Notes under the pieces: generated by a model | The model's input: the letters and a program-made list of their open reading frames with translations, nothing else | Databases searched by the model: none | What the model was told of the DNA's origin: nothing | In this document: positions 11,521 to 30,757 of the stretch, one piece after another | Position numbering within the stretch: the stretch's first letter is position 1 | Layout: each line of letters opens with the position of its first letter | Program-made: the position numbers and the translations under genes | Assembly (NCBI GenBank): GCA_016181305.1 | Contig: JACOZN010000010.1 | Location: forward strand, 66,814-130,813 | Source of the DNA: Candidatus Woesearchaeota archaeon | GTDB lineage: Archaea > Nanobdellota > Nanobdellia > Woesearchaeales > GW2011-AR4 | Reading direction: 5' to 3' | DNA: 64,000 nucleotides

Positions 11521-12607
11521 AAAATTCCCTGATTGAGCCGCAGATGTATTTTATCTGCTCGTCTTTAAGGCTGTAAAAGACAGGCAGTGACAATCCTTCG
11601 TCATAAGCCTTGTTCGAAACTGGAAACTCATCTTCTTTGTAGCCAAGGTGCGCAAGGTAGGGCTGCCTGTGCAATGGGTAAAAAAGGCGCCTTGTCTGAA
11701 TGCCTTTGCCCTCAAGGAAAGGTATCAATTCCGCTAATTTTTCCGCCCATATGTTCACCCTGAAAGGGACAAAATTTGAAAAATCGTTGCCTTTCAAGAA
11801 GCTTACATTTTTAACATCTCGAAGCAGCCTGCGGTAAAGCTCATAATGCTCCAGCTTTACCTTTTCAATCTTTTTGAATTTCCTGATCTGGGCTACGCCG
11901 ACAGCGCACTGCAAATCTGTCATCCTGAAGTTCATTCCCAGGCCCGGGTGCACAAATGTGCCGCTGTGCGGCCTTCCCTGGTTTCGCAGCAGCTTGAGCC
12001 TGCTGTAAAGCTCTTCATTGTTCGTGAGCACAACAGCGCCCTCTCCGGTTGTTATTGTCTTGTCTGCAAAAAAAGATATTATTCCCAGGTCGCCTATTGC
12101 GCCGACATGATTTCCCCTGCAATAAACTCCAAAGCCCTGCGCCGCATCCTCGAGCACCTTTATGCCGCGCCTGGCTGCAATTTCCATAATCTTTCCCATG
12201 TCGCAGCTTCTGCCGTAAATATGCACGGGCATTATGGCCTTGGTTTTTGGCGTTATTGCCTGCTCTATTTTACCTGTGTCTATGTTTAAGTCATCATCAA
12301 GAACATCGACAAATTTTGGAACAGCTCCCCTGAATATCACAGGCGATGCCGAGGCGCTGAAGGTGAAGTCCGGCAAGATTACCTCATCGCCTTCCCTGAT
12401 GCCCAATGCCGCCAAAGAAAGGTACAATGCCAGTGTGCCGTTGCTGGCCAAAACAGCGTACCTTGCTTTTGTGAATTTTTTTATATCCTCCAGAAACTCC
12501 TCGGAAAAAGGGCCTTCTGTTATCCACCTGGTTTCTATGACTTTTTTCAGGTTGTTCAGCTCGTCTTCGTCAAAATACGGCTCCAATTGGGGAACTTTGT
12601 ATTTCAT
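11498..12607 (-). CDS. DegT/DnrJ/EryC1/StrS-family PLP-dependent sugar aminotransferase
   Basis: 'LASNGTLALYLSLAALGIREGDEVILPDFTF', 'IMPVHIYG' and 'SFFADKTITTGEGAVV' (catalytic Lys region). Confidence 0.8.
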   Translation of the reverse strand: MKYKVPQLEPYFDEDELNNLKKVIETRWITEGPFSEEFLEDIKKFTKARYAVLASNGTLALYLSLAALGIREGDEVILPDFTFSASASPVIFRGAVPKFVDVLDDDLNIDTGKIEQAITPKTKAIMPVHIYGRSCDMGKIMEIAARRGIKVLEDAAQGFGVYCRGNHVGAIGDLGIISFFADKTITTGEGAVVLTNNEELYSRLKLLRNQGRPHSGTFVHPGLGMNFRMTDLQCAVGVAQIRKFKKIEKVKLEHYELYRRLLRDVKNVSFLKGNDFSNFVPFRVNIWAEKLAELIPFLEGKGIQTRRLFYPLHRQPYLAHLGYKEDEFPVSNKAYDEGLSLPVFYSLKDEQIKYICGSIREFYEKNKNG

Positions 12608-12611
12608 GCAG

Positions 12612-12616
12612 TCACC
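12612..12616 (-). promoter_or_regulatory. Shine-Dalgarno GGTGA for the DegT gene, embedding the TGA stop of the upstream gene
   Basis: The minus strand reads AAGGTGACTGCATG, with 4 nt of spacing between GGTGA and ATG 12607. Confidence 0.4.
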
Positions 12617-13379
12617 TTAGCTTACAGACAAAGTTTATTTTCCAGTCATTTTCGGCAATTTTTTTGCTTGGCTCCTTGTAAGGGAATGCCTGCACGACTT
12701 TCAGGCCTGAAGCATCAAGAGCACTCGCAATCTCGTTGTATGTGAAAAAGTTGATTACAATGCTGGGATTGGCGCGCTCTGCAAGCCTGCCGTTCTTATA
12801 AGCTTTTATGTCATACTTCAGCGTGCAAACCTGCCTTAAAAAATCAGTCTTTGGGATTGCTTTCCTCTCAATTTTTAACCCTTTCCATTCGATTGTCTTT
12901 GTTTTTATTTCCGGGGGATGCAGAAAAACAGCGCTGCCGTTCCATGCATCGAAAATGAATATTGAGCCATTTTTCATGTTTTTAGCCACTGAACTGAAAA
13001 AGCCCACAAGATTCTTGTACGGGCCAAGCGCATTCACGACATCAAACAAGGATATGATTACATCAAACGGCTCATTTACATCTTTAAAGCTTTTGCACTC
13101 AAAATGCAGCCCTGTGGACTTGCCTCTTGCAATGCCAATCATGTGCCTTGACACATCAAATCCATATGCCCTGTAGCCCATCCTGGAAAATGCAATGGTG
13201 TGGTTTCCGGTGCCGCAGCCCACATCAGCCAGCTTAAGGCTTTTTTTCCCTGAATTTTCTTTCTTTAAATATTTCCTTATGACAGAATCTATTACTCTGG
13301 CTTCTCCATCATAGTCCTTGCCCTTGTTTATCAAATCGTAATACTTCGAAAATGTCCCGCTGTAATTGGTGTTTTTCAT
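12612..13379 (-). CDS. Class I SAM-dependent methyltransferase
   Basis: 'LADVGCGTGNHTIAFSRMGYRAYGFDVS' is motif I/II. 'FDVIISLFDVVNAL' and 'MKNGSIFIFD' are also present. Confidence 0.7.
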   Translation of the reverse strand: MKNTNYSGTFSKYYDLINKGKDYDGEARVIDSVIRKYLKKENSGKKSLKLADVGCGTGNHTIAFSRMGYRAYGFDVSRHMIGIARGKSTGLHFECKSFKDVNEPFDVIISLFDVVNALGPYKNLVGFFSSVAKNMKNGSIFIFDAWNGSAVFLHPPEIKTKTIEWKGLKIERKAIPKTDFLRQVCTLKYDIKAYKNGRLAERANPSIVINFFTYNEIASALDASGLKVVQAFPYKEPSKKIAENDWKINFVCKLR

Positions 13380-22414: not shown

Positions 22415-23536
22415 TTATTGCATACCCTGAAGCTGCTCCCACAACTGACTTTCTATCGCGGGCTCTTTCCCAGCGAGATTTTTGGCTTCGGACTTGTCTT
22501 TCTCAAGATTGTAAAGCTCTTTCTTTTTACTTGTCTCGTTGTATATTAGCTTCCAATTGTTTGTGCGCACAGCCTTAACGTTATGCTTTTCCGGAGAAGG
22601 TGTTGGTCCGCCCAAGCCGCCTGTTTCTGAGTATGCAATCCTGTCCTCTTCTTTTCCGTGAATAATATCCAAAAATGATTTTCCCTGAACCGGCTTGTAG
22701 CCGTTTTTTTCTATTATATCAAGAATTTCAAGTATGGTTGGCATTAAGTCAATGCTCCTTATCTGGGAGTTTATTATTTTGCCTTTTGGGAACTGCTTCC
22801 CTATTGCATAAAGAAAGCATCTTATTGTGTAATCATAAAGATACACTCCATATGCCTTTTCGCCAATCCTGTCTCCCACACTCACTCCATGGTCCGTGAA
22901 AATAAAAATTATTGAATCGTCCCATAAGCCAAGCTCTTTTATTCTGCCTAGAATTATCTTGAGGTAGTCGGCGCTTGACCGCAATGAGTTTAGATAATTC
23001 TTAAGATTTGCTTCCTTGTTCTTAAAGTATTCCTCATCAAAATCAGTGTATTTCTTGATTACATTTTTGAGAAGCTCGGGGTGAATCTTGACATAATCCA
23101 GGTAGAGAAAAAAAGGCTGCTTTGGCTTTATCTGGTTGAGGACTTCCAAGTGCCTTGCGGTTAAGTCATCTTTGAACTCATCGTAAACTCTTACCTTGTC
23201 AAAGCCCTGGGTTGGAAGCACATTTTCATTGTGAATGTCTGTTTCTGTGCAGTAGCCATTGCCTTTGAGGTACTGCGCCAGCGTGAAGCACCCCTTCTTG
23301 TCAAAGCCGAAGCTTTTGTAGTAGCCGTTGACGCCGTTTGAATTGCCGTACATGCCCGAGAATGTGGCGTGCAAAGAAGCGATAGTATAAGGAGCGTAAG
23401 TAATCATTGACGGGAAGAACGTTGATTCTTTTTTCAGCTCCTCGTAGATTGGAACTTTGCCTATCAGGTCATGCCTGGCGCCATCTACCAGAATCATAAT
23501 TACGTTCGGTTTTTTCTTTTTGAAGAGGCTCAGCAT
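22415..23536 (-). CDS. Alkaline-phosphatase superfamily (sulfatase-fold) protein, cytoplasmic-looking, Thr at nucleophile position
   Basis: 'VIMILVDGARHD', 'APYTIASLHATFSGMYG' and 'IIFIFTDHGVSVGD'. No N-terminal hydrophobic segment and no CxPxR motif. Confidence 0.65.
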   Translation of the reverse strand: MLSLFKKKKPNVIMILVDGARHDLIGKVPIYEELKKESTFFPSMITYAPYTIASLHATFSGMYGNSNGVNGYYKSFGFDKKGCFTLAQYLKGNGYCTETDIHNENVLPTQGFDKVRVYDEFKDDLTARHLEVLNQIKPKQPFFLYLDYVKIHPELLKNVIKKYTDFDEEYFKNKEANLKNYLNSLRSSADYLKIILGRIKELGLWDDSIIFIFTDHGVSVGDRIGEKAYGVYLYDYTIRCFLYAIGKQFPKGKIINSQIRSIDLMPTILEILDIIEKNGYKPVQGKSFLDIIHGKEEDRIAYSETGGLGGPTPSPEKHNVKAVRTNNWKLIYNETSKKKELYNLEKDKSEAKNLAGKEPAIESQLWEQLQGMQ

Positions 23537-23549
23537 TTTAATTGAGGCT

Positions 23550-24926
23550 TTATTCCATATAGCCCAGCTCTCTCAGCAGCTTTTTTGATTTATCATCCAT
23601 GCTTGACAAGTCAGCATCACCTTCATTGCTTTGCTGCTTTAAAAAATCCAGCATCTTTTGTTTCATTTCAGATGCAACTTCTTTTTCTTTATTTATCAGA
23701 TTATTTGTCTCATTGGGGTCGTCCTTTAGGTTGTAAAGCTCAAAAATATCGTTTTGTGGGTGCGGAATGTAGATGAGTTTCCAGTCTCCTATTATCATCG
23801 TACGCCATTTTCCCCTTATTCCCGGGAAGAATATTCTCTTATGCCCCTTGAAATGCTCTTCAAGGCTCTCGGCAAAGACAAACTCCCTGCCTTTTAGGGT
23901 TTCTCCCTTAATTAAAGGCAGCAGGCTCATGCCGTCCACCCTGTCAATCAAAGGCACGTTGAGCATGTCCATTATCGTGGGCATTATGTCGATGTTCTGC
24001 ACTCTTTGCTTTATAATCTTGCCCTTTGGAACCAGTTTTGGATGCCTGAATATTAAAGGTATCCTCAAGCTCGGCTCATAGAGGCTTGCAGCATGCTGGA
24101 AGTAAAAATCATGCTCGCCGAAATTCTCGCCATGGTCCGATGTAAGAATGACTAAAGTTTCATCTTCAAGCCCAGTCTCCTTTAACGTGTCCAGGATTCT
24201 GCCAATCTGGGTGTCAACATATTTTATAGCTCCGTCATAATGCGCTATTGCATGCTCCATCTCCTCTTTTGGAAACTTGACATGCCCGAACAAGATGTCG
24301 CCTCTTGCCAGTTTCCCATCGGCTAATGTGTTGAAGTCGTGGCTGCCTTTATAGCCGGAATCAAACATATGTTCATAGGGCTTTGGAGGCCAGTAAGGCC
24401 AGTGCAGGTCTATGGGATGGTGGCATAAAAAGAATTTTTCATTGGAGTGCTTTTTTATCCACCTTATCGCTATTTGAGTATGCTGCTCAGTCAGGCCAAG
24501 AAAATTCTTGGGATTTAATATTTTATAAATGCCCCTTTTGATTTTGTTTTCAATTTTCCACGTGAGCGGATTGAACTCCTGAAACCCTTTTTTCATGGCT
24601 GGCTCGCTCAGAACGTCTACATCAAGGTATGCATTCCTGAAGCCGTGGCTTTGAAGTATTTCAGGCAATGTTGTTACAGACTCATTGAACTTGTTGTTGG
24701 AGACAAGCCTTATGCCATGGTTATGCGGATAGACTCCTGTGAATGCGGACAATATGGATGAATTTGTCCATGGAAAAGGGCAATACGCGTTCGAGAAGCT
24801 CGTGCCTTCTTTTGCCAGCCTGTCTATGTTCGGGCTTGTAGCCCTTGCATAGCCGTTTGCGCTTAAATGGTCAGGGCGCAGTGCATCCACTATAAACATG
24901 ATTATGTTCATTTTGCCTAAGGGCAT
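23550..24926 (-). CDS. Sulfatase-fold (alkaline-phosphatase superfamily) protein, non-canonical active-site motif
   Basis: 'IIMFIVDALRPDHLSANGY', 'PWTNSSILSAFTGVYP' and 'LTSDHGENFGEHDFYFQH'. The track start at 24932 is GTG, and the first ATG is 24926. Confidence 0.7.
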   Translation of the reverse strand: MPLGKMNIIMFIVDALRPDHLSANGYARATSPNIDRLAKEGTSFSNAYCPFPWTNSSILSAFTGVYPHNHGIRLVSNNKFNESVTTLPEILQSHGFRNAYLDVDVLSEPAMKKGFQEFNPLTWKIENKIKRGIYKILNPKNFLGLTEQHTQIAIRWIKKHSNEKFFLCHHPIDLHWPYWPPKPYEHMFDSGYKGSHDFNTLADGKLARGDILFGHVKFPKEEMEHAIAHYDGAIKYVDTQIGRILDTLKETGLEDETLVILTSDHGENFGEHDFYFQHAASLYEPSLRIPLIFRHPKLVPKGKIIKQRVQNIDIMPTIMDMLNVPLIDRVDGMSLLPLIKGETLKGREFVFAESLEEHFKGHKRIFFPGIRGKWRTMIIGDWKLIYIPHPQNDIFELYNLKDDPNETNNLINKEKEVASEMKQKMLDFLKQQSNEGDADLSSMDDKSKKLLRELGYME

Positions 24927-24962
24927 ATTCACTAGTTTAAAAATCTATATTAAGCATGCAAA

Positions 24963-25826
24963 TCAGCCGGTTCTGCGATTCTTTAATGCCGCCAATACTT
25001 TATAGGGAACTTTAAGTTTTCCGAGAACCTGCCCTTCCCTTCCGTGAAAGTCAGAGCCGCCTGTCTCGAGAAGCCTGTATTTTCCGGCTATATTCCGGAA
25101 CTTTTTGTTGATTTTGCTGCTTTGCGCAAAGCCTGTGTGGTATCTTGAGCTTTCATAATTGTAGTATGTCTCCAGCCCGTCTCCGCCGTTTTTTATAAAG
25201 TATTTTATGAATTCTTCAATGCTGAAATTGCTGTACACGCCGGGATGAGATATTAAAGCAAAGCCTTTTGCAGAGTGTATTGCATTTATCGCCTGCTTTA
25301 TGCCTATCTTGTTTTTTCTCTCAGCATAAGCCTTTTTGCCCACTGCAAGGTACTTATCAAAAATCTTATCTATAGAGTTTACTTTATCGGGGTTGTTCTT
25401 TAGGATTGCTTTGGCAATATGCGGCCTTCCTATCTCGCCTTTTGCGAGTTTCTTGACTTCTTGGTACGTGATTTTGAAGCCCAGTTTTTGGAATTTTTTA
25501 ATTATGTCTTTTTTTTGGCTTTCCCTGTATTGCTGGGCTTTTCTCAACAGGGAATTTAAGGATTTGTTTTTATGGTTGATAAACAATCCGAGAATATGTG
25601 TATCCACAAATCCTTTGTCATCGCAGCTTATCTCAACACCCGGAATAACCTCTATGCCTTTTCCCTTGGCGGCGCTTAAAGCCTCGTCTATGCCGCCTAC
25701 AGAGTCATGGTCTGTTATTGCTATTGCTTTCAGCTTTTTCCTCAAAGCCAGCCTGACAAGCCCTTTCGGGGTTAATGCCCCGTCAGAAGCTGTTGTGTGG
25801 CACTGGAGGTCTATGTTTTTTGGCAT
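24963..25826 (-). CDS. PHP-domain metal-dependent phosphoesterase
   Basis: 'IDLQCHTTASDGALTP', 'AIAITDHDSVGG', 'ISHPG' and 'GGSDFHG'. The track start at 25862 is TTG and overlaps proS. ATG 25826 leaves a 19-nt gap. Confidence 0.75.
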   Translation of the reverse strand: MPKNIDLQCHTTASDGALTPKGLVRLALRKKLKAIAITDHDSVGGIDEALSAAKGKGIEVIPGVEISCDDKGFVDTHILGLFINHKNKSLNSLLRKAQQYRESQKKDIIKKFQKLGFKITYQEVKKLAKGEIGRPHIAKAILKNNPDKVNSIDKIFDKYLAVGKKAYAERKNKIGIKQAINAIHSAKGFALISHPGVYSNFSIEEFIKYFIKNGGDGLETYYNYESSRYHTGFAQSSKINKKFRNIAGKYRLLETGGSDFHGREGQVLGKLKVPYKVLAALKNRRTG

Positions 25827-25845
25827 TTTTATTTTTGATATTATT

Positions 25846-27222
25846 TTAATAAGCCGGCGCAAATACAGCCGAGTAAGCTGCTTTTTTGCCGCAATGCACG
25901 CATTTGCCTGACTTTATCGGACGAACAACCCTAACTGAATTTTTGTTTGCCTTTTCCCTTATCTGCTTTGCGCAGCCTATACTGCCGCACCATAATGCCT
26001 CTATAAACCCTTTCTTTCCGGAAGCAATTTTCTCAAATTCCTGCCATGAGCCTACTTTTGAGATATGGCTGCTGTGGAATTCTTTGGCTTTCCTGCAGAG
26101 GTTGTCCTGAATTGAATTTAATGTTTTTTGTATTTCTTTTAATAATAAATTTTTACTTGTCTTGGTTTTTTCCAATGTGTCCCTTCTAATTAATGTAAAG
26201 TTATTTTTTTCAGATAAAACTATGATCGGGGCGCCCATCAAAATCCAATAGCCAATTTTTTCATTATTGCTTTTTTTTGACTCATCATTAAAAACCCTGA
26301 TTCCATTATTTTTTAATAAATCAAACATTTTTTCATTGAAATCCGCAAAAACAACTTGATAAGGCGCGATTTTCGGCGGAATTACCAGCCCTTTGTTGTC
26401 GCCATGAAGCATGGCTAATGCCCCGATAACCCTCGTTGTTATCCCGTTGCAGGCTTGATAGGCAAACTCGCCTTTTCCGCTTTTATTCCTGAATTTTATG
26501 CTGAATGCCTTGCTGAAATTCTGCCCTAGATAATGCGATGTTGCAGTCTGGACTGACTTGAAGTCAGGCATCAGCGATTCAAGGGCAAGCGTGTATTCAG
26601 CGCCCGGGAACATCCTATGCTCCGGCTTAAAGCCGCTTATTACCGGCATTGCAAGGCAATTTTCATGCAAATCCCTGTAGACATCCAGTATCTTCCTGAC
26701 ATATTCGTCTGCCTCTTTTTTTGTGGAATGGACTGAATGGCTTTCCTGCCACAGGAACTCGTTGCCTCTCAATAAAGGCATATTCGGCTTGAACGACTCC
26801 CATCTCATCACAGAGCAGTATTGGTTTATGCACAGAGGAAGATGCTTTTCCTCCTTGACCCATTTTGCTAGGGATTCATAGATTATTGCCTCTGAGGTTG
26901 GCCTTATCACATATTCCTCCTCAAGAGTGCTGTGCCCTGCCTTGGACACAACAAGAACTTCCCTGAAGAAATCCTCAAAGTGCTTTGTCTGCTTCTTGAA
27001 GGACTTCAATGGAATGAGCGCAGGGAAGTAATATTCTTTAAATCCCAACGGCATTAATTTATTGTCTAAATAGCTCTTTATCAGGCTCCATATCATAAGG
27101 CAGTATTCATGATAAACGACGCAGCCTTTCACTGCAGAAAAATCAACAAGCTTGGAAGCTTCTATAACTTCATGGTACCACTTCACAAAGTCTTCTTCCT
27201 TATTGGTTTTGACAGAAATCAT
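25846..27222 (-). CDS. proS: Prolyl-tRNA synthetase, archaeal/eukaryal type
   Basis: N-terminal 'DFVKWYHEVIEASKLVDFSAVKGCVVY', class II core blocks, and a C-terminal Cys-containing domain ending in '...CVHCGKKAAYSAVFAPAY' (terminal Tyr is typical of this type). Confidence 0.85.
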   Translation of the reverse strand: MISVKTNKEEDFVKWYHEVIEASKLVDFSAVKGCVVYHEYCLMIWSLIKSYLDNKLMPLGFKEYYFPALIPLKSFKKQTKHFEDFFREVLVVSKAGHSTLEEEYVIRPTSEAIIYESLAKWVKEEKHLPLCINQYCSVMRWESFKPNMPLLRGNEFLWQESHSVHSTKKEADEYVRKILDVYRDLHENCLAMPVISGFKPEHRMFPGAEYTLALESLMPDFKSVQTATSHYLGQNFSKAFSIKFRNKSGKGEFAYQACNGITTRVIGALAMLHGDNKGLVIPPKIAPYQVVFADFNEKMFDLLKNNGIRVFNDESKKSNNEKIGYWILMGAPIIVLSEKNNFTLIRRDTLEKTKTSKNLLLKEIQKTLNSIQDNLCRKAKEFHSSHISKVGSWQEFEKIASGKKGFIEALWCGSIGCAKQIREKANKNSVRVVRPIKSGKCVHCGKKAAYSAVFAPAY

Positions 27223-27231
27223 ATTGGCGAA

Positions 27232-28305
27232 TCAGCGCTGAACCTTTATATATTCTTCACCCCTTCTTGTTGTGTAGCTTTCAAAATAGCCTATTACAAT
27301 CCTGTAGTATTCTTCCCCGCTTTTCAGCGGAGTAACCTTTTCCAGGATGCCTGCTGCAACTATGCTTTCCCCCTTGAAAGCCTGCAGCATGAAATCCCTC
27401 GCGTATGTTACAACTTTCTTTACATTGACATCAGGACCCTGGATTACTCTTGCATTTTCCAGTTCATAGTAGCCCGGGCGCACAACTCCATTGTAATCAT
27501 CCTTGACTTTTCCTTTTACGGTAGCCATTCCCATGGGGGTGTATTTTTCATCACCCCACTTGACGGATAATTCATCAGGATTCTCAACGCCGAAAACCGA
27601 GACAACTGTCTCTCCAAAATAGACGTCAATAAATTTCCTCCTTGAATGCCAGATAAACTCGTCCTCTGAAATGAACAGTCCGGCATTGTAAGAGGCGAAG
27701 TATTTCTTCCACTCCTCAAGGCTTTTCCATCTCAGCCACGGGTGCTTTGCATTTTGTATGAAATTTATATATTTCCAGTAATTATCCTTTCCAAAAACTA
27801 TTATATCAATATCCGACCTTCCATAAGTATAAGTGCCAAGCAATGTGGAGTTGGTTACTCCCAAGTCAGAGGCTTTCAAGCCGCTTTCCAAAACTAAGCT
27901 TAAAAATCCATGCGCCCTCTTCATGTAATCGTCCATCTCAGAGCCTTTCATCGCAAGGATTCTTTTCACGCCGTCTTTTGGATTGGGAAGCTTTGCTATC
28001 TTGTTTCTTGGAACCCCCATAAACCACGTTTTATGCAGTGGGCTGTCATACATGTAGTCCGGGTACGCTTTTCTGAAGTCATCTATGTACGACTTCAGCC
28101 TTTTCTCGTCAACTGCCCAATAGTCAAACCTTCTCACGTCGCTGCCATGTATGTTTCTTTCCTGGAATCCCGAGCAGTCTATCTTATGCCTTGGAATGTA
28201 TTTTGGCTTTGCTATCACAAAGCCGTCAGGATGGTCGTTTGCATAGCTCTTCAGCTGCAGTCCATCATCGCTCCACATTATCATGGACTCGTAAAAGTGC
28301 GTCAT
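27232..28305 (-). CDS. Predicted Pol-beta-superfamily nucleotidyltransferase with C-terminal OB-like domain
   Basis: 'GVTNSTLLGTYTYGRSDIDIIVFG' is a G[ST]...DxD minimal nucleotidyltransferase motif. The C-terminal region 'ATVKGKVKDDYNGVVRPGYYELENARVI' looks beta-rich. The start overlaps the upstream stop as ATGA. Confidence 0.55.
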   Translation of the reverse strand: MTHFYESMIMWSDDGLQLKSYANDHPDGFVIAKPKYIPRHKIDCSGFQERNIHGSDVRRFDYWAVDEKRLKSYIDDFRKAYPDYMYDSPLHKTWFMGVPRNKIAKLPNPKDGVKRILAMKGSEMDDYMKRAHGFLSLVLESGLKASDLGVTNSTLLGTYTYGRSDIDIIVFGKDNYWKYINFIQNAKHPWLRWKSLEEWKKYFASYNAGLFISEDEFIWHSRRKFIDVYFGETVVSVFGVENPDELSVKWGDEKYTPMGMATVKGKVKDDYNGVVRPGYYELENARVIQGPDVNVKKVVTYARDFMLQAFKGESIVAAGILEKVTPLKSGEEYYRIVIGYFESYTTRRGEEYIKVQR

Positions 28306-29705
28306 TTTGCCTCCTGTGAATTTGCTACAAATTTGCTTTTACCCATATATTCCAGAAACTCCCTTACATTGTGAATTTCAAGAAGGTTTGTCCTTTTTGA
28401 CTTGCTGTGGAAGATGGACGCTATTATGGCTATCTGGTCCGTTTTTCCTATAAATCCCTTTTTTAGCGCCTTCATAATGACTTTCTTTTTGTCGTTGTTT
28501 GATATGTCATCAGTGTCCATATCAACATGCAGCGGGCATATGCCCCATAACAGATGAAGCTGCCTGAAAATTTTCATTCTTGAGGTTGCCGCTATGGTTT
28601 TGCATTTCAGCCTTTTGCCCGATATCATCCTTGCAGAATACCCCCCCGATGTCATTATAAGCAAGGCGTCTATGCACAAAATCTTCTCCAGCTCTGAAAC
28701 TGCATCGCCTATGAATCTCGTCAAGTCATGGCTTGCGCTCCTGGAAGCTTCTTCAACTGCAATCTCAGCATTCTTTATAATTCTGGAAAGTGTTTCGACT
28801 GATTTGAGCGGGAATTTCCCAGCTGAGGTTTCATCCGACAGCATTATGCAGGATGCACCTTCAATAACGGCATTTGAAATGTCGTATACCTCCGGCTGCA
28901 TCAATGGTTCTCCTGAAACCGAGGAGTTAAGAATATTGCCCGATATTATGACGGGCTTTCCATAAGCGCTGCACTTATTGATGACTTCTTTCTGGAATTT
29001 CGGTAGGGCTTCAATGCCAGCGCCTGCAAAACTGCTCCTGTCGAAAACAATTCCGTAAGCCTCATCAATTATCTCTTGATTATTTTTCAGCGATTTCCTG
29101 CCAATTTTTGCTATTACCTTGATTTTGTCGCCTATGACTTGACTTATATCGCTATAGCCCAGAAGCCTGCTGACTTGGCGTATGTCCTCTGCACTATCAG
29201 CCGGAACAATAACAAAATCTATGTCATTTTTTACGGCAAACTTTATCCAGCTTCTGCTTTGCTTTGCGCTGATGTCAAGCAGTATCGGGATGTCGCCTGA
29301 CGCGTGCCTGATGTTGTGGATTATGCTGAGCACAGCCTTGTCATCTATGCCTGAGGCGTCAATCCTGGCAGCGTCCATTCCGCTCCCAACCAATTTCCTG
29401 ACTTTGGCTGGGTTATTTGAAGCCGGCCCTATGGTGCACATGACTTTGGTTTTCTTTTTTCTTTTTTTGTTTTCTTTCTCTTCAATTGCATCATAGAATT
29501 CTTTGGCCCTGCCGGATTCATTCACCTCGTAGAAGAGCGCGTTATTCCTGCGGTTTGCAGCAACATTGCCGGATTTTTCCAGACTCTTTAACACCTTGAA
29601 TGCGCTTCCCACGCTTATGCCGAGCATTCTGGCTATCTGGTTGATATTGTAGCCATTTCCGTGGTTCTTGTATAAAAACTCGAAGATTTTTGCCTTGTTG
29701 TCCAT
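28302..29705 (-). CDS. Winged-helix DNA-binding domain fused to a degenerate pyruvate-kinase-like scaffold (lid domain and Mg ligands missing; C-terminal allosteric domain kept)
   Basis: N-terminal 'YNINQIARMLGISVGSAFKVLKSLEKSGNV' is a wHTH. It is followed by 'KKTKVMCTIGPAS...GMDAARIDAS' (PK N-terminal barrel), 'ILLDISAKQSRS' running straight into 'IDFVIVPADSAEDIR', then 'AKIG', 'FDRSSFAGAG', 'IMLSDETSAGKFPLKSV', and a PK_C-like end 'LLIMTSGGYSARMIS'. Confidence 0.7.
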   Translation of the reverse strand: MDNKAKIFEFLYKNHGNGYNINQIARMLGISVGSAFKVLKSLEKSGNVAANRRNNALFYEVNESGRAKEFYDAIEEKENKKRKKKTKVMCTIGPASNNPAKVRKLVGSGMDAARIDASGIDDKAVLSIIHNIRHASGDIPILLDISAKQSRSWIKFAVKNDIDFVIVPADSAEDIRQVSRLLGYSDISQVIGDKIKVIAKIGRKSLKNNQEIIDEAYGIVFDRSSFAGAGIEALPKFQKEVINKCSAYGKPVIISGNILNSSVSGEPLMQPEVYDISNAVIEGASCIMLSDETSAGKFPLKSVETLSRIIKNAEIAVEEASRSASHDLTRFIGDAVSELEKILCIDALLIMTSGGYSARMISGKRLKCKTIAATSRMKIFRQLHLLWGICPLHVDMDTDDISNNDKKKVIMKALKKGFIGKTDQIAIIASIFHSKSKRTNLLEIHNVREFLEYMGKSKFVANSQEAK

Positions 29706-29708
29706 TTT

Positions 29709-29784
29709 AAAAGTGAATAATAATTATAAAAAAGTGAATAAAAAGCGTTTATAAATGTTTCTATTTTTAAGGATGTTATTCACT
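29709..29784. repeat. Three copies of the octamer GTGAATAA (two direct at 29713-29720 and 29734-29741; one inverted at 29777-29784) in the divergent promoter region
   Basis: Read directly from the sequence. The two direct copies are each preceded by AAAA and flank the putative TATA box of the wHTH-PK-like gene. Confidence 0.5.
29724..29732 (-). promoter_or_regulatory. TATA-like box (minus-strand TTTTTATAA) for the wHTH-PK-like gene
   Basis: The proximal edge is 19 nt upstream of ATG 29705. This is somewhat short, and an alternative TTTATAAA lies at 29748-29755. Confidence 0.3.
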
Positions 29785-29842
29785 ATTTTGGCTGAAATGC
29801 TGCTGACAGCCCTGCCGGAGGAGGAAGCTGCCTTAAGAAAGG

Positions 29843-29850
29843 CTTAAATA
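29843..29850 (+). promoter_or_regulatory. TATA box CTTAAATA for the 29873 gene
   Basis: It ends 23 nt upstream of ATG 29873. Confidence 0.5.
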
Positions 29851-29872
29851 GTGGGCGGGAAAACACAAAATT

Positions 29873-30757
29873 ATGGAAAAAGCCGATAATATAACTTATA
29901 AGGCGATAAGGGCAAAGCAGGCTGCTGACTTAAAATCAAAAAGCATAAGGTACATGGTTTACAGGCGCTTCTCAACGCCCTTTACTTATGCATTTGTAAA
30001 GTTGGGAATGTCGCCAGCTTCTGTGTCCATATTAAATTTTTTTGTTCCTTTGGTGGGCTTTTATTTTTTAATAAGGGGCTCTTACGCATCGATGATTATT
30101 GGATTATCTTTTTTCATGTTATTTAAAACGCTTGACTGCTGCGACGGCGAAGTTGCCAGGATACAAAACCCGAAGGCAATGGACCCCATGCACAGAAGAT
30201 TGGAAGGGGCTTATTTCGATGGGCTCTCAAATTACATATACGCTGTTTTTCTGGGGATGGGCCTTGGAATCGGGCTTTCTGAGATGTACGGCAGCAGGCT
30301 TTTTGTCAGCCTTGGGGTGATTTTGACAATTTTTTTGACGCTTGAGGTAGCAATAATTGATGTCATGAAATCGTATTTCAGAAGAGGGCTGATAGAGAGG
30401 AAATTGATGAAGATAACTGATAAATATGCGATGGAAAAGCTGATAGGGAAAATAAACAGTATAGAAAGTGGGGAAGTAAGCATATTCAAAAAATTGCTTC
30501 GGGTATATCCGACACCAGGCTTGCTTTATGCAACTGAATTTTTTGCACTTGTATTGATTGTAATAACATTGGCGGAATATGCCATGATAAAAAATTTTAA
30601 TGCGGGGTTTATATTTTATCAGTTTAGCATACTTGCATTATACCTTTTAATAGTGACTGTTGTAAGGGCGATGAACATTTCAATATTTGTATATAAAATG
30701 AAAAAGCACGAGTACATGACAAGTTTGCTGGAAGAGCTTCAGGGCAAAAAGTTATAG
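29873..30757 (+). CDS. CDP-alcohol phosphatidyltransferase-like integral membrane protein with a deviant signature
   Basis: 'LDCCDGEVARIQNPKAMDPMHRRLEGAYFDGLSNY' has DGxxAR present, but the spacer to G is about 15 aa rather than 8, and the last Asp of GxxxDxxxD is Asn. Several hydrophobic segments are present. Confidence 0.5.
   Translation: MEKADNITYKAIRAKQAADLKSKSIRYMVYRRFSTPFTYAFVKLGMSPASVSILNFFVPLVGFYFLIRGSYASMIIGLSFFMLFKTLDCCDGEVARIQNPKAMDPMHRRLEGAYFDGLSNYIYAVFLGMGLGIGLSEMYGSRLFVSLGVILTIFLTLEVAIIDVMKSYFRRGLIERKLMKITDKYAMEKLIGKINSIESGEVSIFKKLLRVYPTPGLLYATEFFALVLIVITLAEYAMIKNFNAGFIFYQFSILALYLLIVTVVRAMNISIFVYKMKKHEYMTSLLEELQGKKL

Follow-up and report, generated by a model that had tools for sequence, protein, structure and literature searches.

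A 64,000-nt stretch of DNA from a Candidatus Woesearchaeota archaeon (assembly GCA_016181305.1, contig JACOZN010000010.1, positions 66,814 to 130,813 of the forward strand; hereafter the window) contains a gene whose product joins an N-terminal winged helix-turn-helix (wHTH) domain to a pyruvate kinase (PK) scaffold that has lost both its B (lid) domain and its metal-binding residues. We consider that this protein is probably (at roughly 60%) a PK-derived one-component regulator. Its interpretation as a transcription factor is supported, at the level of sequence and structural models, by an operator-like repeat module that accompanies the promoter of the gene in every one of the 18 loci examined, by structural neighbors of the head that are wHTH DNA-binding proteins only, and by a shift of evolutionary constraint away from the barrel.

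Domain architecture

The gene and the domains of its product were mapped as follows (window coordinates).

28302-29705, minus strand: lid-less wHTH-PK-like gene, 467 aa, ATG start, first gene of its operon (open reading frame [ORF], Pfam, AlphaFold2, and the ratio of nonsynonymous to synonymous substitution rates [dN/dS])
29514-29705, minus strand: wHTH head, aa 1-64 (DSSP of AlphaFold2 models, Foldseek, invariant residues)
29460-29513, minus strand: charged linker helix between head and barrel, aa 65-82 (AlphaFold2 helix 65-81)
28746-29459, minus strand: PK A-domain (beta/alpha)8 barrel with a degenerate active site, aa 83-320 (Pfam, PDB alignment, Foldseek)
29250-29270, minus strand: junction of the B (lid) deletion, aa 146-152, ...LDISAKQSRSW... 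(PDB alignment, MAFFT)
28356-28727, minus strand: PK C domain, aa 327-450 (PF02887, invariant columns)

The original prediction, made by eye from the sequence, had assigned the region following the wHTH to PK, with an intact C-terminal domain and without any lid. Pfam searches verified the homology. PF00224 (PK barrel) matched in two stretches (4.3e-34), the better of which covered aa 147-303 and corresponded to profile positions 175-328, and PF02887 (PK_C) matched across aa 334-445 (6.9e-19), in agreement with an intact C domain; both matches exceeded their gathering scores. The helix-turn-helix (HTH) matches that had been expected beside them were also found, below threshold. The NCBIfam PK equivalog TIGR01064 scored 195.7 bits, under its cut-off of 306.4.

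A phmmer search of the PDB aligned query residues 83-150 with residues 2-73 of the G. stearothermophilus PK and query residues 147-451 with residues 172-478; since PK residues 74-171 are skipped in this alignment, approximately 100 lid residues are missing from the query. Our MAFFT alignment likewise placed 0 residues of the query in the lid region, compared with 92-108 in canonical PKs. The AlphaFold2 model of the 467-aa protein, based on a 71-sequence alignment, had a predicted local distance difference test score (pLDDT) of 88.4 and a predicted template modeling score of 0.83. It showed, in order, a wHTH of H-H-H-beta-beta topology, a linker helix (65-81), an alpha/beta barrel, and the C domain, and the top Foldseek matches of the model in the PDB were PK chains in which the B domain is disordered or absent, including 7qdn. 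The alignments and the model thus agree with the prediction that the entire B domain is gone. No other PK was found in the window by tblastn.

Degeneration of the active site

We aligned the query with 57 relatives and eight canonical PKs using MAFFT and scored 16 positions in Bacillus PK numbering. All 16 positions were conserved in the canonical PKs, with the exception of P0069. Both Mg ligands were replaced in the query (E222G and D246S; rabbit E271 and D295), the proton donor T278 was replaced by G, and Q279 was N; these correspond to the replacements of SKIE by AKIG, ARGDLGVE by FDRSSFAGAG, and ATQML by SGNIL that had been read by eye. The query also carried G245S, N34D, and T67I, and R73 was gone together with the lid, while R32, S36, D66, K220, R244, S312, E314, and T315 were retained. 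The Mg ligands are therefore not conserved.

D246 was kept by none of the 44 lid-less family members with a readable N-terminus. R32, D66, K220, E222, and T278 varied freely among the lid-less proteins, with R/S/C/L/K/N/I at R32 and K/S/R/I/V/M/T/N/G at K220. With no lid, both Mg ligands and the proton donor replaced, and a score under the equivalog cut-off, the query is, as judged from its sequence, a pseudoenzyme, and in a functional sense it does not appear to belong to the PK enzyme family.

The winged-helix head

DSSP assignments of the AlphaFold2 model placed helices at residues 3-13 and 21-28, a recognition helix at 32-44, and wing strands at 48-53 and 56-61. The pLDDT was 85-95 across aa 1-60, and the head modeled in isolation scored 84.7. 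Residues N20, N22, R26, G29, S31, G33, S34, F36, and K37 were invariant, and the helix-3 region ISVGSAFKxLK was almost invariant in the family. A Foldseek search of the PDB with the isolated head returned 31 matches with E <= 1e-3, and all those with a functional description among the 50 matches listed were wHTH DNA-binding proteins. They included Sso10a-2, the pNOB8 centromere-binding protein AspA, and MarR-family and ArsR/SmtB-family repressors (E ~1e-4, TM 0.6-0.8), and DNA complexes were present for MepR, SlyA, AspA, and ST1710. Both the topology and the structural matches therefore bear out the wHTH domain that had been proposed.

We were unable to assign the head to a named wHTH family. 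The best profile matches fell short of their thresholds (HTH_29, 20.1 versus 28.1; HTH_11, 19.8 versus 25; TrmB, 17.6 versus 25.6), and the structure indicated only a broad MarR/ArsR/PadR-like group. Some homologues have a precomputed PF13412 match. When the head by itself was searched with phmmer against 1.84 billion representatives, it was also found fused to Pol-beta-type nucleotidyltransferase domains in proteins of ~200 aa, which indicates that the head is a reusable module in these archaea. Examples of such fusions to a minimal Pol-beta nucleotidyltransferase are P0131, P0133, P0140, P0145, P0148, and P0156.

Operator-like repeats at the promoter

The 167-bp region upstream of the gene (29706-29872) contained the following elements.

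29709-29720, minus strand: proximal repeat TTATTCACTTTT (gene strand), with ATTCAC at -13 from the ATG
29730-29741, minus strand: distal repeat TTATTCACTTTT, 21 bp upstream of the proximal repeat, with ATTCAC at -34
29748-29755, minus strand: TATA-like box TTTATAAA at -50 (in homologous loci TTTAWAWA, with AAAATAGAAAC before it)
29776-29787, plus strand: third repeat, inverted, TTATTCACTATT, upstream of the TATA box and facing the divergent gene, at -78

The two TTATTCACTTTT copies are direct repeats. The exact 9-mer TTATTCACT occurred three times in the 64-kb window, each time within the upstream region; 0.94 occurrences were expected per window, and the probability of at least three in the upstream region, given the local composition, was 2.7e-8. 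This region was also the sole place in the window where three ATTCAC/GTGAAT cores fell within 100 bp. In a search of the window for single sites with one mismatch allowed, the counts matched chance, and only the cluster at 29706-29790 was significant.

We compared the promoters of 18 loci, 11 encoding lid-less proteins (the window included) and seven encoding the lid-containing long forms described below. A conserved ATTCAC-type module, the binding of which is a prediction, was present at the gene's own promoter in 18/18 loci. The ATTCAC pair with 21-bp spacing was found in all 11 lid-less loci and in four of the seven long-form loci, even though the encoded proteins share no more than 45-60% identity. 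The remaining three long-form loci, which were the most divergent ones, had another arrangement of the half-site: it formed a tight palindrome in L132 and L130 (AAGTGAATAATCATTCACT; TTGAATAATCATTCAC), and L134 contained two GCATTCATTT repeats 20 bp apart, the ATG lying 46 and 26 nt further on. Upstream of the TATA box, 8/11 lid-less and 4/7 long-form loci had an inverted RTGAAT copy, and several others had TTGAAT there. Since the proteins share only 35-60% identity and neutral DNA would be randomized at such distances, conservation of the repeats is not explained by neutral drift.

The sites lay just downstream of a TTTAWAWA box at all 18 loci, and the first ATTCAC began 16 nt after the start of this box in 14 of them, including the window. 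The distance from repeat to ATG ranged from 13 to 143 nt. The module is therefore placed relative to the core promoter, its distance to the TATA box being fixed and that to the ATG variable. Archaeal transcription starts ~26 nt downstream of the center of the TATA box, and the start is accordingly expected between the two repeats, in the window about 30 nt past the beginning of the TATA box. Repeats so placed would match the arrangement seen with archaeal repressors that act by preventing RNA polymerase from being recruited.

In ~150 kb of sequence from nine genome-derived loci, the paired motif occurred in front of the wHTH-PK gene only. A scan of metagenome contigs for TTATTCACT-N12-TTATTCACT returned at least 120 matches and was uninformative on additional targets: among the matches listed, only L011 and L062 had the gene and promoter architecture, and the others came from contigs with no relation to it, many of them high in GC, or from simple repeats of TTATTCA. 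In L020, L065, and L126, short TTATTCA(C/T) tandem repeats fit the operator pattern by chance, a caution for pattern-based regulon searches with the ATTCAC motif.

A variant protein was observed together with a variant site in L134 (P0050), where the recognition helix reads SAHKIMQEL rather than SAFKILKxxE and the half-site ATTCAT rather than ATTCAC. This is one case of possible protein-DNA co-variation.

Conservation of the family and shift of constraint

Our homology search identified approximately 43 clusters (90% identity) with the same architecture, all from assemblies of the Woesearchaeota/Nanoarchaeota type, as had been anticipated for archaeal metagenome-assembled genomes (MAGs). The lid-less homologues were 455-501 aa long, shared 48-67% identity with the query across ~98% of its length, and are labeled 'hypothetical protein' or 'pyruvate kinase' in public records. 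All 44 lid-less members had 0-3 residues where the lid would be, with identical deletion boundaries. The nearest genome locus, L001, is from Candidatus Woesearchaeota archaeon RIFCSPHIGHO2_02_FULL_40_54; it is syntenic and encodes a protein 87% identical to the query. The dN/dS ratio relative to this orthologue was 0.20 overall, with 0.11 in the wHTH, 0.21 in the barrel, and 0.15 in the C domain, and all parts of the protein are thus under purifying selection.

Mean column conservation in the long forms was highest in the barrel (0.69), followed by the C domain (0.61) and the wHTH (0.59), whereas the order in the lid-less proteins was C domain (0.78), wHTH (0.75), and barrel (0.65). The linker helix was the least conserved segment. 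Invariants specific to the lid-less proteins were concentrated in the wHTH and in loops of the C domain, where they comprised S353, E399-D400-I401, A429-S430, and H433-S434, the last lying in a basic FHSKSKRTN loop (H433-S-K-S-K-R-T-N440). The loop T352-S-G-G-Y-S-A-R359 was also invariant. We take these C-domain loops to be the counterpart of the allosteric effector pocket in PKs, in which the T-x-S-G-x-S/T-A-R loop is presumably the effector phosphate-binding loop. Constraint that has moved in this way, off the barrel and onto the wHTH and C domain, is what a switch from catalysis to sensing and DNA binding would be expected to produce.

Long-form wHTH-PKs and the order of events

Thirteen proteins of 528-573 aa (P0040, P0044-P0050, and P0052-P0055), annotated as 'pyruvate kinase', carry the same ~82-aa head. 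These long forms were 35-48% identical to the query and retained a lid of 95-104 residues together with all scored catalytic and ligand residues except T67 (I/L/M) and Q279 (H in P0045 and E in P0055). Their LDIPGPKIRL motif supplies I113, K117, and L120 in rabbit numbering and thereby matches the signature described for K-independent PKs (PMC8835810). We rejected decay as an explanation for T67I in the long forms, since it fits this signature. On the basis of this signature and the retained catalytic residues, the long forms look like active enzymes.

A neighbor-joining tree of 365 shared columns placed all wHTH-PKs in one clade (54/54) and the lid-less proteins in a single sub-clade (42/42), the sister group of which comprised the long forms P0040, P0044, and P0045. 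Because the lid-less clade is monophyletic and nested within the wHTH-PKs, the simplest history would be that a wHTH and a PK were fused once and that the lid was later deleted, also once, and the active site decayed. Long and lid-less forms filled the same syntenic slot, and none of nine loci from species-representative genomes came from an assembly with both; the two forms therefore behave as positional orthologues. The original prediction of a pseudoenzyme that had gained a DNA-binding head thus stands as to the presence of both parts, but not as to their order: the head was already on an intact PK.

Operon and genomic context

The wHTH-PK gene was always the first of a tightly packed, often overlapping gene string within a surface-glycan cluster, which contained genes for a sugar nucleotidyltransferase, a 4,6-dehydratase, GT4 glycosyltransferases, a Wzx-type flippase, and CDP-alcohol-phosphatidyltransferase-like proteins. 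The context is one of sulfate activation and surface-glycan genes, not of glycolysis, which amends the original prediction. The following neighbors were identified in the window.

27232-28305, minus strand: C6, 357 aa, start overlapping the stop of the PK-like gene; constant partner of the lid-less forms
24963-25862, minus strand: PHP-family phosphoesterase in the same gene string (PF02811)
29873-30757, plus strand: divergent membrane-protein gene sharing the 167-bp intergenic region, weakly CDP-alcohol phosphatidyltransferase-like

Next to the long forms, ATP sulfurylase was the following gene in each of the six loci that extend past the wHTH-PK gene (L006-L008, L130, L132, and L134; PUA_2 plus ATP-sulfurylase, 5.5e-75). 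The kinase of adenosine 5'-phosphosulfate (APS) then followed, directly in five loci and past an NT5C gene in L134; the representative of the same gene cluster in L002 matched APS kinase at 1.3e-46. A PHP, inositol-monophosphatase-family, or NT5C gene was located in or beside the operon in L130, L132, and L134. Examples of the long-form operon are at 8001-11373 in L130 and 10001-13364 in L007. To our knowledge, PK has not previously been linked to the synthesis of 3'-phosphoadenosine 5'-phosphosulfate (PAPS); a guess is that the long forms regenerate ATP from phosphoenolpyruvate (PEP) for sulfate activation. In L132, the wHTH-PK/ATP sulfurylase/APS kinase/PHP operon was immediately followed by a gene for the RuBisCO large subunit (12152-13351, minus strand).

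The lid-less gene was followed by the string C6a, C6b, C12, PHP, and APS kinase in seven loci, which represent different sub-clades, with one extra unannotated gene ahead of PHP in L002 and L136. A derived version in the window and L001 consisted of C6, the prolyl-tRNA synthetase (ProRS) gene, PHP, and two sulfatase-family genes; ATP sulfurylase, APS kinase, and C12 were absent from the 64-kb window. In all lid-less operons, C6 stood where the long forms have ATP sulfurylase (for example, 11369-13529 in L002 and 9431-11591 in L136). The family (~356 aa, 163 clusters, mostly two tandem paralogues) is apparently restricted to Woesearchaeota and Nanoarchaeota. C12 (~210 aa, 76% mean column identity, with CxxC and HLHIKIFPF motifs) was seen in lid-less operons only, between C6b and PHP, as in the following copies.

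L002, 13522-14154: C12
L136, 11592-12230: C12
L137, 11527-12141: C12
L138, 10615-11238: C12

Neither C6 nor C12 matched any Pfam, NCBIfam, or PDB profile. Some C6 members are called 'predicted nucleotidyltransferase' by JGI, and it is our impression that a GxSDIDI motif in C6 hints at a Pol-beta-type nucleotidyltransferase and that the HLHIK motif of C12 is HIT-like.

The PHP gene, which was conserved in the lid-less operons, matched the NCBIfam profiles for nucleoside bisphosphate phosphatase (7.5e-48) and RNase RNM (1.9e-50), both under cut-off, and its product is a candidate 3',5'-bisphosphate nucleotidase. The divergent gene scored 1.5e-5, under cut-off, against the NCBIfam archaetidylinositol phosphate synthase, and its homologue in L002 matched CDP-OH_P_transf at 6.8e-4.

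The ProRS gene, located between C6 and PHP at 25846-27222 (minus strand), was found in the window and L001 only and seems to have been inserted into the operon in this lineage. Downstream of PHP, at 22415-24932 (minus strand), were the tandem 'Sulfatase'-family genes (373 and 460 aa). A similar pair (364 and 460 aa) was present at 1390-3863 in L132, beside genes for PEP mutase, a thiamine pyrophosphate enzyme, and an iron-dependent alcohol dehydrogenase, which look like phosphonate biosynthesis genes. Because of this neighborhood, the 'Sulfatase'-family pair may encode surface-decoration transferases rather than sulfatases.

Proposed function and alternatives

We propose that the N-terminal wHTH would bind the ATTCAC repeats on either side of the start site expected for its own operon and that the occupied operator would block the recruitment of RNA polymerase, so that the operon would be repressed. 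The operon under control would comprise the gene itself, C6, ProRS, PHP, and the two sulfatase-family genes in the window, and C6a-C6b-C12-PHP-APS kinase in most relatives. The PK barrel and C domain would be retained as a scaffold for oligomerization and allostery. A phosphorylated or other anionic metabolite would sit in the conserved, remodeled effector pocket of the C domain and would, in the manner of PK effectors, change the quaternary arrangement, thereby altering the presentation of the wHTH to DNA.

DNA binding to the repeats, repression, the oligomeric state, and the ligand are what we infer here. The positions of the repeats around the start make repression the more likely sign; looping or activation by way of the inverted copy further upstream is also conceivable. 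From the operon context, the adenine nucleotides of sulfate activation (APS, PAPS, and pAp), AMP/ATP, or PEP are speculative candidates for the ligand.

Several points weigh against this proposal. In Pfam and NCBIfam searches, aa 1-65 gave many weak HTH and wHTH matches, none of which reached its gathering score. The repeats could be bound by another factor, and direct repeats would be an unusual target for a protein expected to be a symmetric dimer or tetramer. Targets beyond the gene's own promoter were not found in the loci compared or among the metagenome matches listed, and a wider regulon is therefore unsupported. The barrel may still bind a PEP-like ligand, which is conceivable because the query keeps R32, K220, S312, and E314. 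Finally, the loss of PK catalysis coincides with the replacement of ATP sulfurylase by C6a, C6b, and C12, which could mean that the protein has a role within a new pathway and is more than a regulator.

This last point is the basis of the best-placed alternative, which we nevertheless regard as unlikely: a neofunctionalized 'trigger enzyme' that, with C6a, C6b, and C12, would contribute a new activity, metal-independent or with other ligands, to a replacement supply of APS/PAPS, its wHTH being only autoregulatory, like that of the long forms. The lid was lost exactly where ATP sulfurylase gave way to C6a-C6b-C12 and APS kinase and PHP stayed, the barrel is under purifying selection (dN/dS 0.21), and T315 is kept in addition to the four residues named above. 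However, a new catalytic site would be conserved, and the old active-site positions instead vary widely and have not been re-fixed; the lid-less-specific invariants lie mainly in the wHTH and the C domain rather than at the mouth of the barrel; and in the lineage of the window and L001, C12, one C6 copy, and APS kinase have disappeared from the locus, yet the lid-less gene and its operator are still there.

A noncatalytic scaffold or regulatory subunit, acting through contacts with C6 or with a genuine PK encoded elsewhere and having a vestigial or otherwise used wHTH, seems slightly less probable again. PKs are obligate oligomers, the engineered lid-less PK 7qdn still folds, and C6 is a constant, translationally coupled neighbor. 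On the other hand, the wHTH is among the best-conserved parts of the protein and has the lowest dN/dS (0.11), the repeat module accompanies the gene in 18/18 loci, and no second PK was found in the window by tblastn. The free variation of the active-site residues and the strong constraint on the head make both of these explanations fit poorly.

That the protein is a genuine though unusual PK, as several public annotations imply, is very improbable. Homology to PK is strong in Pfam, NCBIfam, the PDB, and Foldseek, and some sources name family members 'pyruvate kinase'; however, the lid on the nucleotide side is missing, the Mg ligands and the proton-donor Thr are replaced, and the equivalog score is under cut-off. 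That the gene is a pseudogene in decay, or an artefact of assembly or of a frameshift, the last having been named as what could undo the fusion, is scarcely credible despite the degenerate catalytic residues, both being excluded by the intact 467-aa ORF, the approximately 43 independent clusters with the same architecture and deletion boundaries, a dN/dS of 0.20, and a confidently predicted fold.

Returning to the PK-derived regulator, we tentatively sketch a fuller history, which we put at somewhat less than even odds: a PK would have become a wHTH-PK 'trigger enzyme', catalyzing as well as controlling a PK-ATP sulfurylase-APS kinase operon, and then a lid-less regulator, making it the first transcription factor with a PK fold. 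In that regulator, PK allostery, with its C-domain effector pocket and rigid-body tetramer transitions, would be repurposed so that a phospho- or sulfo-metabolite signal determines promoter occupancy, and every stage of the series would survive within a single archaeal lineage. C6a, C6b, and C12 may form a novel route that feeds APS kinase.

Significance and comparison with known systems

The intact wHTH-PKs and their lid-less descendants share a promoter code and form a natural, experimentally tractable series of enzyme-to-regulator evolution, which offers a test of whether the allosteric transitions of PK can drive DNA binding. The PK-ATP sulfurylase-APS kinase operon and the exchange of ATP sulfurylase for C6 and C12 point to an unstudied link between PEP/ATP supply, sulfate activation, and surface glycans in DPANN archaea. 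If lid-less proteins were counted as PK, a false step of substrate-level phosphorylation would enter metabolic reconstructions of DPANN MAGs, which matters because the energy metabolism of this group is debated. A 2026 preprint on complete Nanobdellota genomes reports PK by KEGG orthologue in 39/123 Woesearchaeales and does not mention the fusion. In line with the original prediction, which knew of no described example, we found no description of an HTH-PK fusion or of a PK-derived or pseudoenzyme regulator in the full-text literature searched, the coverage of which is incomplete. Enzyme-derived one-component regulators are known, and a PK scaffold in that role is new to this literature.

Canonical PKs (EC 2.7.1.40; G. 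stearothermophilus PK, 2e28) share with the query the homologous barrel and C domain (E 5e-36 to 2e28; Foldseek E 2e-30 and TM up to 0.82, normalized to the target, for canonical PK structures) and the T-x-S-G-x-S/T-A-R loop. Unlike them, the query has no lid, has replaced the Mg-ligand Glu and Asp and the proton-donor Thr, and carries an additional 82 aa of wHTH and linker. The long-form wHTH-PKs of Woesearchaeota have the same head, the ATTCAC/T half-site, and the operon-first slot in the glycan cluster, but they keep the lid and catalytic residues and are followed by ATP sulfurylase and APS kinase rather than C6 and C12. The same lid-less scaffold of A and C domains is found in engineered B-domain-deleted human liver PK (7qdn; 5sc8/5sc9 series), the structures of which indicate that such a scaffold can fold; that protein, however, was made in the laboratory, retains its catalytic residues, and has no domain for binding DNA. 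MarR, ArsR-SmtB, and PadR-like repressors, Sso10a-2, and AspA share the H-H-H-beta-beta fold of the head, but the dimerization elements of the MarR, ArsR-SmtB, and PadR-like proteins are absent from the query, which has the PK scaffold in their place.

Closer parallels in overall design are provided by regulators that join an HTH to an enzyme-family domain. GfcR of Haloferax volcanii and PurR of Gram-positive bacteria combine an HTH with a phosphoribosyltransferase-like domain that binds pathway intermediates, and GfcR has been experimentally shown to be an activator of sugar catabolism (PMC10838023). They resemble the query in carrying an N-terminal HTH and an enzyme-family domain on one polypeptide, GfcR being archaeal as well, but their fold is that of phosphoribosyltransferases and GfcR acts in sugar catabolism, whereas the query has a PK fold, a sulfate/glycan context, and a predicted function. 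BzdR consists of an HTH, a linker, and a shikimate-kinase-like effector domain that has lost catalysis, a loss argued to have been necessary for becoming a regulator (PMC3602430). The query similarly joins a DNA-binding domain to a catalysis-dead, enzyme-derived domain with a presumed effector role, although the fold is a TIM barrel plus PK C domain rather than a P-loop kinase, the HTH is of another type, and the host of BzdR is bacterial. The bifunctional 'missing link' of BzdR was built synthetically (PMC3602430), whereas the long wHTH-PKs are natural candidates for such an intermediate.

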